Origin: Escherichia coli
Lineage (GTDB): Bacteria; Pseudomonadota; Gammaproteobacteria; Enterobacterales; Enterobacteriaceae
NCBI RefSeq assembly: GCF_003334405.1
Contig: NZ_QOWM01000002.1
Reading direction: 5' to 3' (one strand)
DNA length: 64,000 bases
Shown here: one piece after another, positions 6,688 to 13,891 of the stretch
Position numbering within the stretch: the stretch's first letter is position 1
How the letters are laid out: the number at the start of each line of letters is the position of its first letter
The notes under the pieces: model-generated
Databases searched by the model: none
Seen by the model: the letters and a program-made list of their open reading frames with translations, nothing else
Told to the model about the DNA's origin: nothing
Translations under genes and position numbers: made by a program

Positions 6688-8046
<1,359 letters not shown>

Positions 8047-8256
8047 TTAATTAACTGATGATGAGCCTGGATTTCCGCTCTCACTGAATTTTTATGCAAA
8101 ATAAATGAGTTTTCATTTAATCATCTTTTATCGGAGACAGGAAGAGTTTAGTGTGTTTTTTGTAAAATAATGCGCTTAAGGGAGAGCAGGAGAAGGCAAA
8201 AGTATTCAACAAATGAAAGTGAACTGGATATTCATTCACATGATTAGCAATAAACG

Positions 8257-8286
8257 TTGACAAAATGTGGCGTGGATCACTATAAT
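8257..8286 (+). promoter_or_regulatory. Near-consensus sigma70 promoter (TTGACA, about 18 nt spacer, TATAAT) upstream of metY
   Basis: ttgacaaaatgtggcgtggatcactataat read directly; about 95 nt upstream of the tRNA. Confidence 0.5.
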
Positions 8287-8378
8287 GCCTGCAGATTTTA
8301 CGTCCCGTCTCGGTACACCAAATCCCAGCAGTATTTGCATTTTTTACCCAAAACGAGTAGAATTTGCCACGTTTCAGG

Positions 8379-8455
<77 letters not shown>

Positions 8456-8577
8456 CTTTCCCTTAGAGTCCTTTTTCAAATATACTGTGAAGACTTCGGC
8501 CTTCGTAGTGGGATTTGAAAAAATCCTTCTGGAAAGTGCTCCAGACCGCAGTTGCGGTTATAGGGTTCAGTTATATA

Positions 8578-8606
8578 AAGCCCCGATTTATCGGGGTTTT
8601 TTGTTA
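8578..8606 (+). terminator. Rho-independent terminator after metY
   Basis: aaaGCCCCGATttatCGGGGttttttgtt. Confidence 0.5.
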
Positions 8607-8661
8607 TCTGACTACAGAATAACTGGGCTTTAGGCCCTTTTTTTATGTCTTGGGGGTGGGC

Positions 8662-9114
8662 TTGTCCACATTAGAGCAAAAATTAACAGAGATGATTACT
8701 GCGCCAGTTGAGGCCCTGGGTTTTGAACTGGTTGGCATCGAATTTATTCGCGGTCGCACATCCACACTGCGCATCTATATTGATAGTGAAGATGGCATCA
8801 ATGTTGATGATTGTGCTGATGTGAGCCACCAGGTAAGTGCTGTGCTGGATGTTGAAGATCCCATCACCGTTGCTTATAACCTGGAAGTCTCCTCACCGGG
8901 TCTCGATCGCCCACTGTTCACGGCTGAACACTACGCCCGTTTTGTCGGAGAAGAGGTGACTCTGGTTCTCCGTATGGCGGTACAAAACCGTCGTAAATGG
9001 CAGGGCGTTATCAAAGCGGTAGACGGTGAAATGATCACAGTTACCGTCGAAGGTAAAGATGAAGTGTTCGCGCTGAGTAATATCCAGAAGGCGAACCTGG
9101 TTCCCCACTTTTAA
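8662..9114 (+). CDS. rimP: ribosome maturation factor RimP
   Basis: Track ORF 8650..9114; N-terminus [12 protein letters not shown] suggests a UUG/GUG start near 8656-8662; first gene of the nusA-infB operon. Confidence 0.8.
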
Positions 9115-9141
9115 TAGTCTGGATGAGGTGAAAAGCCCGCG

Positions 9142-10629
<1,488 letters not shown>

Positions 10630-10653
10630 TAAACTGTAGCAGGAAGGAACAGC

Positions 10654-13326
10654 ATGACAGATGTAACGATTAAAACGCTGGCCGCAGAGCGACAGACCTC
10701 CGTGGAACGCCTGGTACAGCAATTTGCTGATGCAGGTATCCGGAAGTCTGCTGACGACTCTGTGTCTGCACAAGAGAAACAGACTTTGATTGACCACCTG
10801 AATCAGAAAAATTCAGGCCCGGACAAATTGACGCTGCAACGTAAAACACGCAGCACCCTTAACATTCCTGGTACCGGTGGAAAAAGCAAATCGGTACAAA
10901 TCGAAGTCCGCAAGAAACGCACCTTTGTGAAACGCGATCCGCAAGAGGCTGAACGCCTTGCAGCGGAAGAGCAAGCGCAGCGTGAAGCGGAAGAGCAAGC
11001 CCGTCGTGAGGCAGAAGAATCGGCTAAACGCGAGGCGCAACAAAAAGCTGAACGTGAGGCCGCAGAACAAGCTAAGCGTGAAGCTGCTGAACAAGCGAAA
11101 CGTGAAGCTGCGGAAAAAGACAAAGTGAGCAATCAACAAGACGATATGACTAAAAACGCCCAGGCTGAAAAAGCCCGCCGTGAGCAGGAAGCTGCAGAGC
11201 TCAAGCGTAAAGCTGAAGAAGAAGCGCGTCGTAAACTCGAAGAAGAAGCACGTCGCGTTGCTGAAGAAGCACGTCGTATGGCGGAAGAAAACAAATGGAC
11301 TGATAACGCGGAACCGACTGAAGATTCCAGCGATTATCACGTCACTACTTCTCAACATGCTCGCCAGGCAGAAGACGAAAGCGATCGTGAAGTCGAAGGC
11401 GGCCGTGGCCGTGGTCGTAACGCGAAAGCAGCGCGTCCGAAGAAAGGCAACAAACACGCTGAATCAAAAGCTGATCGTGAAGAAGCACGCGCAGCAGTAC
11501 GTGGCGGTAAAGGCGGAAAACGTAAAGGTTCTTCGCTGCAGCAAGGCTTCCAGAAGCCTGCTCAGGCCGTTAACCGTGACGTTGTGATCGGCGAAACTAT
11601 CACCGTTGGCGAACTGGCGAACAAGATGGCGGTTAAAGGCTCTCAGGTCATCAAAGCGATGATGAAACTGGGCGCAATGGCAACCATCAACCAGGTTATC
11701 GATCAGGAAACCGCACAGCTGGTTGCTGAAGAGATGGGCCATAAAGTTATCCTGCGTCGTGAAAACGAGCTGGAAGAGGCGGTAATGAGCGACCGTGACA
11801 CGGGTGCTGCGGCTGAACCGCGCGCGCCGGTTGTGACCATCATGGGTCACGTTGACCACGGTAAAACCTCTCTGCTGGACTACATTCGTTCAACGAAAGT
11901 GGCCTCTGGCGAAGCGGGCGGCATTACCCAGCACATTGGTGCATACCACGTTGAAACTGAAAACGGCATGATCACCTTCCTGGACACCCCGGGGCACGCC
12001 GCGTTTACTTCAATGCGTGCTCGTGGTGCGCAGGCAACGGACATCGTAGTCCTGGTTGTTGCTGCCGACGACGGTGTGATGCCGCAGACCATCGAAGCAA
12101 TCCAGCACGCGAAAGCGGCGCAGGTACCGGTGGTGGTTGCAGTGAACAAGATCGATAAACCAGAAGCTGATCCGGATCGCGTTAAGAACGAACTCTCCCA
12201 GTACGGCATCCTGCCGGAAGAGTGGGGCGGTGAAAGCCAGTTCGTACACGTATCTGCGAAAGCGGGTACCGGTATCGATGAACTGCTGGACGCTATCCTG
12301 CTGCAGGCGGAAGTTCTGGAGCTGAAAGCGGTACGTAAAGGTATGGCGAGCGGTGCGGTTATCGAATCCTTCCTCGATAAAGGTCGTGGTCCGGTTGCTA
12401 CCGTTCTGGTACGTGAAGGTACTCTGCACAAGGGCGATATCGTTCTGTGTGGCTTCGAATACGGTCGTGTTCGTGCGATGCGTAACGAACTGGGTCAGGA
12501 AGTGCTGGAAGCGGGTCCGTCCATTCCGGTGGAAATCCTCGGCCTGTCCGGCGTACCGGCTGCGGGTGATGAAGTTACCGTTGTACGTGACGAGAAGAAA
12601 GCGCGTGAAGTTGCACTCTATCGTCAGGGTAAATTCCGCGAAGTTAAACTGGCGCGTCAGCAGAAATCTAAACTCGAGAACATGTTCGCCAACATGACCG
12701 AAGGCGAAGTTCACGAAGTGAATATCGTCCTGAAGGCAGACGTACAGGGTTCTGTCGAAGCGATCTCCGACTCCTTGCTGAAACTGTCTACTGACGAAGT
12801 TAAAGTGAAGATCATCGGTTCTGGCGTAGGTGGTATCACCGAAACCGACGCCACCCTGGCTGCGGCGTCCAACGCCATCCTGGTTGGCTTTAACGTACGT
12901 GCTGATGCCTCTGCACGTAAAGTGATTGAAGCGGAAAGCCTGGATCTGCGTTACTACTCCGTCATCTATAACCTGATTGACGAAGTGAAAGCGGCGATGA
13001 GCGGTATGCTGTCTCCGGAACTGAAACAGCAGATTATCGGTCTGGCGGAAGTTCGTGACGTGTTCAAATCGCCGAAATTTGGTGCCATCGCAGGCTGTAT
13101 GGTTACCGAAGGTGTGGTTAAACGTCACAACCCGATCCGCGTTCTGCGTGACAACGTGGTTATCTACGAAGGCGAGCTGGAGTCCCTGCGCCGCTTCAAA
13201 GATGACGTTAACGAAGTCCGTAACGGTATGGAATGTGGTATCGGCGTTAAGAACTACAACGACGTCCGCACTGGCGATGTGATCGAAGTATTCGAAATCA
13301 TCGAGATCCAACGTACCATTGCTTAA
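10654..13326 (+). CDS. infB: translation initiation factor IF-2
   Basis: 890-aa ORF; GTPase motifs [25 protein letters not shown]; Glu/Ala/Arg/Lys-rich repeat region near the N-terminus. Confidence 0.95.
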
Positions 13327-13337
13327 GGTTTTTAGGG

Positions 13338-13420
13338 TTCCATGCGGGATAAGGCGTTTACGCTGCATCCGGCATGGATTGCCTGATGTGACGCTGGCGC
13401 GTCTTATCAGGTCAACGTGA
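13338..13420. repeat. REP-like palindromic units between infB and rbfA
   Basis: gcgggataaggcgtttacgctgcatccggca and gcctgatgtgacgctggcgcgtcttatcaggtc resemble REP consensus. Confidence 0.45.
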
Positions 13421-13447
13421 ACAGCCCTTCCACCTGAAATTAATTTT

Positions 13448-13476
13448 AAAAAGGGGCTAACAGCCCCTTTTTTGTC
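13448..13476 (+). terminator. Terminator/attenuator-like hairpin immediately upstream of rbfA
   Basis: aaaaaGGGGCTaacAGCCCCttttttgtc; ends about 14 nt before the rbfA ATG. Confidence 0.45.
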
Positions 13477-13489
13477 AGGAGAATTTATT

Positions 13490-13891
13490 ATGGCGAAAGA
13501 ATTTGGTCGCCCGCAGCGCGTAGCGCAGGAAATGCAAAAAGAGATCGCTCTCATCCTGCAGCGTGAAATTAAAGATCCTCGCCTGGGCATGATGACCACC
13601 GTTTCCGGTGTCGAAATGTCTCGCGACCTGGCGTATGCCAAAGTATATGTGACGTTCCTCAACGACAAAGATGAAGACGCGGTTAAAGCGGGCATCAAAG
13701 CGTTGCAAGAAGCTTCTGGTTTCATCCGCAGCCTGCTGGGGAAAGCGATGCGCCTGCGTATCGTGCCGGAACTGACCTTCTTCTACGACAACTCTCTGGT
13801 TGAAGGGATGCGCATGTCAAACCTGGTGACCAGCGTGGTCAAACATGACGAAGAACGTCGTGTTAACCCGGACGACAGCAAGGAGGACTAA
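13490..13891 (+). CDS. rbfA: ribosome-binding factor A
   Basis: Track ORF 13472..13891 trimmed to [14 protein letters not shown]. Confidence 0.92.

Follow-up and report, generated by a model that had tools for sequence, protein, structure and literature searches.

The metY-rimP-nusA-infB-rbfA region of Escherichia coli, which lies within the 64,000-nucleotide stretch of DNA that we analysed (hereafter the window), carries two G+C-rich hairpins followed by T-runs, one shortly upstream of rimP and the other shortly upstream of rbfA. The question raised by this locus is whether these hairpins are ordinary terminators, attenuators or processing sites, and whether their proximity to ribosome-binding sites has anything to do with their function. 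Both have long been known as t2 and t3, leaky transcription terminators of the metY-rimP-nusA-infB-rbfA operon that limit the amount of transcription reaching rimP and rbfA, and they represent nothing new.

In the RefSeq annotation, argG, on the minus strand, is followed by an initiator tRNA-Met gene at the metY locus (8379-8455, plus strand) and by rimP, nusA, infB, rbfA, truB and rpsO. The rimP coding sequence extends from a TTG at 8662 to 9114 and the rbfA coding sequence from an ATG at 13490 to 13891, both on the plus strand; they are preceded by an SD-like GGGGGT (8652-8657) and by the SD sequence AGGAG (13477-13481), respectively. A consensus scan recovered two sigma-70 promoter-like sites on the plus strand, TTGACA-18-TATAAT at 8257-8286 (12/12, about 93 nt 5' of the tRNA gene) and TTTGCA-18-TAGAAT at 8334-8363, which, judging from the description in PMC6511841, are probably the published promoters P-1 and P0. 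The consensus scan detected no promoter-like site from either hairpin to its start codon, so that translation of rimP and rbfA would depend entirely on read-through. An Rfam scan by E-value over positions 7000-20000 returned only the rimP leader, the tRNA, a naRNA4 match, the S15 leader (RF00114, 14926-15040) and the antisense sRNA SraG (RF00082, 15270-15441); no riboswitch, T-box or ribosomal-protein leader family was found 5' of the terminators in this interval.

We compared the locus with that of K-12 MG1655, whose coordinates are obtained by subtracting the window position from 3326668. Between positions 8200 and 14000 of the window there were two base differences only, one at 8425 in the tRNA and one at 10291 in nusA. 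Both the metY-rimP spacer (8456-8661) and the infB-rbfA spacer have exactly the K-12 MG1655 sequence, and the K-12 literature is thus directly applicable to them. A query of about 1 kb around the site of the first hairpin matched all of the complete E. coli genomes (5,426/5,426), mostly with at least 99% identity. Position 8425 of the tRNA at the metY locus is a G here and an A in K-12; G at that position corresponds to the tRNA-fMet1 type present in E. coli B strains such as MRE600 (Brandi et al., PMC6511841), which means that the DNA does not come from K-12.

The first hairpin, t2, occupies positions 8625-8644 on the plus strand and is made of GGGCTTTAGGCCC (8625-8637) followed by seven T (8638-8644). 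Its stem, running from G8625 to C8637, comprises 5 bp, GGGC paired with GCCC plus one U.G pair, and encloses a TTA loop. The hairpin and T7 run reported before rimP by the initial annotation are therefore present, and it is their distance to the gene that had been misjudged. They had been placed a few nucleotides from the rimP start, a distance that fits only an ATG at 8645 and a TTG at 8650, the former out of frame and the latter in frame with rimP. The rimP start is TTG 8662, as annotated in RefSeq and as supported by comparison between species, and it lies 17 nt past the end of the T-run, with the SD-like GGGGGT in between. At the position aligned to 8662, we observed ATG in Vibrio-like and TTG in Photobacterium-like and Pseudoalteromonas-like metagenome loci. 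The SD at rimP is the canonical GGAGGT in two loci.

The other two candidate starts were both rejected. ATG 8645, considered either as the rimP start or as the start of a regulatory uORF, is out of frame and is replaced by ACG in six genera; TTG 8650, albeit in frame, is CTG in five loci, and both RefSeq and the aligned Vibrio-like ATG favour 8662. The ORF opened by ATG 8645 (ATG TCT TGG GGG TGG GCT TGT CCA CAT TAG, nine codons, 8645-8674) begins just after the T7 run and extends across the SD and start codon of rimP; the loss of its ATG in these six genera makes a function improbable.

Another and stronger terminator, t1, which had been overlooked in the initial annotation, lies 22 nt 5' of t2. 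It covers positions 8577-8602 on the plus strand and is formed by AAAGCCCCGA-TTTA-TCGGGGTTTT and a T-run at 8597-8602. Together, t1 and t2 belong to the Rfam family RF01770 "Gammaproteobacteria rimP leader", which matched positions 8544-8644 on the plus strand over the entire model (positions 1-102/102) with a score of 102 bits, well above the gathering score of 47 (E-value 2e-18). The match ends at 8644 and rimP begins at 8662, so that the leader is located directly 5' of rimP-nusA-infB. The rimP-leader motif was defined by Naville and Gautheret (2010, PMC2965389) as a GGGc..gCCC hairpin plus a U stretch, separated from the start codon by an interval of 4-130 nt that "may encompass the RBS", and was accompanied in Gammaproteobacteria by a second terminator upstream, CCCg(...)cGGG. 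We recovered both elements, the GGGC/GCCC stem being invariant in 62 loci and a CCCCG..CGGGG stem being present 5' of it. The same authors proposed NusA as the factor recognising the motif and included the "nusA attenuator (E. coli)" and the "rbfA attenuator (E. coli)", with their exact sequences, among the known systems (PMC2965389).

Two smaller structures are also present in the leader. At 8544-8559 (plus strand), a small stem-loop ACCGC-AGTT-GCGGT showed compensatory changes among many genera, its variants being GACCGC/GCGGTT, GATCGC/GCGATC, GGCCGC/GCGGCT, GGCCAC/GTGGCT and GGTCAC/GTGACT. Between t1 and t2, a spacer hairpin formed by GTTATCTG and CAGAATAAC (8603-8623, plus strand) has a 3' strand that overlaps the 3' strand of a candidate antiterminator helix (8619-8630) discussed below. 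We also considered a pairing of the t1 5' arm with the 5' arm and loop of t2, which have 8 nt of perfect complementarity, and rejected it, as the complementarity beyond GGGC:GCCC was lost in Klebsiella-like and Vibrio sequences.

The second hairpin, t3, corresponds to the "rbfA attenuator" and lies at 13448-13473 on the plus strand. It has the form A5-GGGGCTAACAGCCCC-T6, with A5 at 13448-13452, the hairpin GGGGC-TAACA-GCCCC at 13453-13467 and T6 at 13468-13473, and its stem can be extended to a perfect 11-bp inverted repeat (-15.2 kcal/mol). Table S4 of PMC2965389 gives AAAAAGGGGCTAACAGCCCCTTTTTTGTCAGGAG for E. coli rbfA, which is the t3 sequence of the window. The stem and T6 run that the initial annotation had described before rbfA were thus confirmed; the rbfA ATG, in turn, is 16 nt away from the end of the T6 run, not 14, and the two do not abut, since AGGAG lies between them. 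Our consensus scan missed t3, apparently because the stem was extended into the T-run, leaving too few T in the tail. A REP/BIME element, detected as an Rfam naRNA4 match (13343-13413, plus strand; 68.1 bits vs 59.5), fills most of the infB-rbfA spacer directly 5' of t3, the infB stop codon ending at 13326. The symmetry of t3 (A5-stem-T6) gives it a terminator pattern on both strands, and it could consequently also stop antisense transcription. Its loop differs among E. coli strains, being TAACA here and TTATG in another of the loci collected (L002).

All three elements exhibit the anatomy of intrinsic terminators, each consisting of a G+C-rich stem, a short loop and a T-run (of 6, 7 and 6 T in t1, t2 and t3, respectively). 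The consensus scan listed t1 and t2, and t3 was confirmed by folding and as an inverted repeat. Relative to composition-matched shuffles, t1 (-14.1 kcal/mol, z -4.35) and t3 (z -3.08) were more stable, and t2 taken alone folded weakly (-7.4 kcal/mol, z -1.14), 25 of 200 shuffles being equally stable.

The rimP leader was strongly conserved. Among 58 Enterobacteriaceae loci that could be aligned without indels, out of the 80 described below, 79 columns were invariant in the 100 nt upstream of rimP, compared to 8 of the 50 third positions of rimP codons. The leader varied only in the loops of t2 and of the spacer hairpin and at a few positions that separate t1 from a conserved box located 5' of it (see below). 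In 62 loci, the t2 stem was invariant and its loop variable. A metagenome DNA-pattern scan provided at least 19 true rimP leaders among the 120 matches listed.

For rbfA, the scan of species-representative genomes with RbfA produced 80 loci (85-100% identity), all from Enterobacteriaceae, which limits the diversity of this set. A G-rich/C-rich hairpin was present 5' of the gene in 85 of the 87 rbfA loci, its loop taking more than 20 different forms; an Idiomarina-like locus had no hairpin in its 25-nt spacer. The t3 stem was mostly GGGGC/GCCCC and, depending on the lineage, GGGGGGC/GCCCCCC, GGGGGCC/GGCCCCC or GGGAGGCC/GGCCUCCC. Strong t3 stems (-15 to -16 kcal/mol) were followed by an interrupted U-run (GATTTG, GTTTTG or GAATTATT) and a weak one (-9.5 kcal/mol) by a perfect T6. 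This inverse relation between stem strength and U-run quality, seen in loci L002-L081, L142, L178, L186 and L193, fits a selection that would have favoured partial, not complete, termination.

Termination in vivo and its dependence on NusA are here taken from the literature, and the assignment of the NusA effect to one or another terminator comes from secondary citations. Bylund and co-workers reportedly described NusA-dependent termination in this operon, and a t3 deletion was reported to raise RbfA (Bylund et al. 2001). Brandi et al. (PMC6511841) described t1, t2 and t3 as internal intrinsic terminators of an operon under NusA negative feedback. They reported a 6.7-kb RNA spanning rimP through rbfA and a 4.8-kb RNA without rbfA, observed by northern blot and "likely" ending at t3, as well as an rbfA mRNA about twofold less abundant than the infB mRNA (PMC6511841). 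The same paper cites Bylund (2011) for an increase of the operon transcripts in mutants with reduced NusA-stimulated termination.

The DirectRNA-seq Rho-score table of Adams et al. (2021, PMC7815308) contains the coordinate 3318065(-), which converts to position 8603 of the window, where the U-run of t1 ends. The 800-nt intervals on either side of this coordinate had a coverage of 4269 (upstream) and 196 (downstream) in the absence of bicyclomycin, and of 3527 and 481, respectively, in its presence (PMC7815308), a ratio that cannot be read as a termination efficiency because the upstream interval includes the abundant tRNA. Neither t2 nor t3 appears among the ends called in the Term-seq peak lists examined from that study (PMC7815308): in two conditions, there was no minus-strand row from 3311708 to 3318213, and no coordinate beginning with 33131 or 33132 was found in any of the files examined. 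In these data, support for termination in vivo is thus direct for t1, provided by the northern blot for t3 and only second-hand for t2. In Salmonella, the rimP leader RNA was found among the ProQ-associated sRNAs (PMC5391140) and a transposon screen scored it among the non-coding elements that are required (PMC3632133).

The metY-rimP interval also contains a long hairpin at 8472-8522 (plus strand), an inverted repeat with a stem of about 20 bp. The RNase III cleavage mapped in this spacer, at K-12 position 3318176 (PMC5371410), corresponds to position 8492 of the window and falls within this hairpin, about 130 nt 5' of t2. The forward primer of the rimP fusion of Adams et al. (2021) begins near this hairpin and the RNase III position. 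A lacZ fusion carrying the rimP 5'UTR and ORF was lower, not higher, in a rho mutant, which indicates that additional layers of control exist.

The terminator anatomy, Rfam membership, strong conservation and identity with K-12 established here, combined with these published data, lead us to conclude that both hairpins are very probably Rho-independent terminators that act as leaky internal attenuators of the metY-rimP-nusA-infB-rbfA-truB unit. A polymerase starting upstream of metY or just after it would meet t1 first and t2 next. Some polymerases would terminate at these sites, with release of a tRNA precursor or of a short leader RNA, and the remaining ones would read into rimP-nusA-infB. 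A further fraction would stop at t3, with the consequence that rbfA-truB would be transcribed less than infB. NusA, itself encoded by the operon, would stimulate hairpin-dependent termination at these sites and would thus exert a negative feedback on its own synthesis. The read-through transcripts would carry a U-run directly 5' of the SD. The way in which t1 and t2 may share the load, as well as any role of the nearness of the ribosome-binding sites, is inferred.

The suggestion of attenuation made by the initial annotation was right, and is indeed documented: the catalogue names of the two elements are "nusA attenuator/rimP-leader" and "rbfA attenuator" (PMC2965389; RF01770). The reasoning behind it needs to be amended on two points. 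Opposing attenuation signals to "simple terminators" is a false contrast, as these hairpins are structurally plain intrinsic terminators. Their closeness to the ribosome-binding sites, from which attenuation had been deduced, is not what makes t2 and t3 attenuators either; they act as such because they are leaky and located inside the operon, and their proximity to the start codons is best explained by the compactness of the spacers.

By setting the level and the ratio of RimP, NusA, IF2 and RbfA, these terminators connect factors of transcription elongation, translation initiation and 30S assembly. We take t1, t2 and t3 to be the site of the classical NusA autoregulation known since the 1980s; as this is, in addition, catalogued in Rfam, our analysis adds no new biology on this point. 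The point that it touches is how the t1/t2 tandem reads out the NusA feedback, and whether the conserved box of the leader takes part in it.

Several other explanations of these hairpins were weighed. That they would be chance inverted repeats without function is practically inconceivable. Loosely defined terminator-like sites are admittedly common in the window (18, versus 12.5 +/- 3.3 in shuffles), and t2 alone, as mentioned above, folds no better than many shuffles, but the exact patterns are not expected by chance: the pattern GGGCN{3,7}GCCCTTTTT occurred once in the 64-kb window versus 0.02 times expected from shuffles, and the t3 pattern was expected 0.00 times. The Rfam match and the published transcript ends also speak against chance, and the conservation in different genera, in which the loops vary and the stems are either kept or compensated, refutes it. 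The initial annotation had proposed processing signals as the other possible role. In this reading, RNase III or RNase E would use the hairpins to separate the tRNA, rimP and rbfA segments. RNase III does process this operon, but we consider the idea very improbable. RNase III requires roughly two helical turns of stem. The stems of t2 (5 bp) and t3 (5-11 bp) are far below this length and the mapped site, at 8492, sits in the separate hairpin at 8472-8522, so that processing at t2 and t3 was not supported; furthermore, the canonical U-runs that follow both hairpins are a signature of terminators. We also regard as unlikely that the position next to the ribosome-binding sites reflects an additional role of these elements in translation or in the stability of the mRNA. 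Here, the U-run 5' of the SD would serve as an S1-binding enhancer for the weak TTG start of rimP, and t3 would act together with the neighbouring REP element to protect the infB mRNA at its 3' end. The location of the REP element directly 5' of t3 would suit such a role, as would the spacings: the 17 nt from T7 to TTG are almost invariant, the U-run-to-start spacing at rimP is 17-19 nt from E. coli to Vibrio-like and Pseudoalteromonas-like loci, the rbfA stem ends 21-23 or 27-30 nt 5' of the ATG, and the interval may include the RBS (Naville and Gautheret, PMC2965389). Across bacteria, however, values between 4 and 130 nt have been reported for this distance (PMC2965389), and t3 is located 39-40 nt from the ATG in more distant loci. 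A pairing between the 3' arm of t2 and the SD and start region of rimP, which we tried as a candidate and rejected, was no better than in shuffles (z -0.41), and the proximity may simply reflect compact intergenic space.

A further reading would make t2 a conditional terminator. An invariant box, AGGGTTCAG (AGGGTYCAG; AGGGTCCAG in other orders), is located at 8562-8570 on the plus strand and is complementary to the t2 5' arm. By pairing with (A)CUGGGCU in this arm, the box would form a helix that encloses t1 and blocks t2, the spacer hairpin at 8603-8623 or a factor such as NusA possibly shifting the balance between the two folds. We consider this switch possible, though less than an even prospect. 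The predicted minimum free energy fold of the whole E. coli leader contains the helix between the box and the t2 arm (12 bp, 8563-8574/8619-8630), not t2, with predicted equilibrium probabilities of 0.77 for this helix and 0.21 for t2. CAGTTAT (8568-8574) is perfectly complementary to ATAACTG (8619-8625), and the box was invariant in every leader collected. Some compensatory changes were observed in the CAGTTAT/ATAACTG extension in other taxa. Among 41 distinct sequences, the proportion of pairing cells was 85.4%, versus 81.1 +/- 0.8% in shuffles (0/500 reached it) and only 26-51% when the partner was slid, and changes on both sides were found in 16 cells versus 7.2 +/- 2.0 in shuffles; the duplex formed with the own partner had an energy of -13.0 kcal/mol, versus -11.5 with the partner of other species (0/10,000 permutations as low), although these controls are inflated both by the use of a structure obtained from E. 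coli and by the relatedness of the sequences. The core pairs of the box never vary, and many are G.U, so that they are uninformative on structure. In addition, the predictions favour t2 (P >=0.9) in Photorhabdus, Yersinia and V. cholerae as well as in several leaders from metagenomes, the best partner of the Vibrio CCAGCAR lies 10-15 nt upstream of t2 without overlapping it, and Naville and Gautheret (PMC2965389) mention an antiterminator for the upstream terminator only and none for GGGc/gCCC. These predictions thus designate the box as a possible antiterminator strand of t2, a candidate with modest support. It seems rather doubtful that the box makes t2 a near-isoenergetic switch where NusA or another signal would set the read-through into rimP-nusA-infB, and that, more broadly, the recurring GGG(G)C..G(C)CCC+U form, shared by t2, t3 and the terminator of rpsO, would mark co-regulated attenuators in a supra-operon extending from metY to pnp. 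Neither the antiterminator role of the box nor the idea of co-regulated attenuators was found stated in the accessible literature. We looked for a GGGC/GCCC signature specific to the attenuators of the nusA operon and did not establish one, as the rpsO terminator has the same form and the window contains only approximately ten good terminators, several of them with C-first stems.

The interpretation of t1, t2 and t3 as leaky intrinsic terminators inside the nusA operon can finally be compared with known systems. RF01770, or "nusA attenuator", is the same locus with the same sequence as the t1/t2 tandem and shows no difference from it, the initial annotation having seen its t2 half only. The "rbfA attenuator", which has no Rfam family of its own, is likewise identical to t3 in locus and sequence. 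The trp, his and pheST leader-peptide attenuators similarly combine a premature intrinsic terminator before the first structural gene with possible alternative pairings; unlike them, the rimP leader has no conserved leader peptide, since we found no conserved short ORF 5' of t2 in this leader, and its only short ORF (ATG 8645, 9 codons) lies 3' of t2 and has lost its ATG in 6 genera. In B. subtilis, the ylxS(rimP)-nusA leader mediates NusA autoregulation via a terminator, according to the summary of Mondal et al. (2016) given in PMC12288461, and an equivalent NusA autoregulation by a leader terminator was proposed in S. agalactiae (PMC4448216). These leaders have a single terminator, with neither the tRNA gene nor the tandem t1 that are both present in E. 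coli. Moreover, the NusA dependence was measured directly in B. subtilis, by depletion Term-seq, whereas we found no equivalent genome-wide data for E. coli. Within the window itself, the rpsO terminator (15275-15296) resembles t3 in stem style, with a GGGGCC..GGCCCC stem and a T-run between co-transcribed genes (GGGGCC-TGAGT-GGCCCC+T6), and differs from it in being located 3' of rpsO, shared with the antisense SraG and linked to the processing by RNase III that takes place 5' of pnp.
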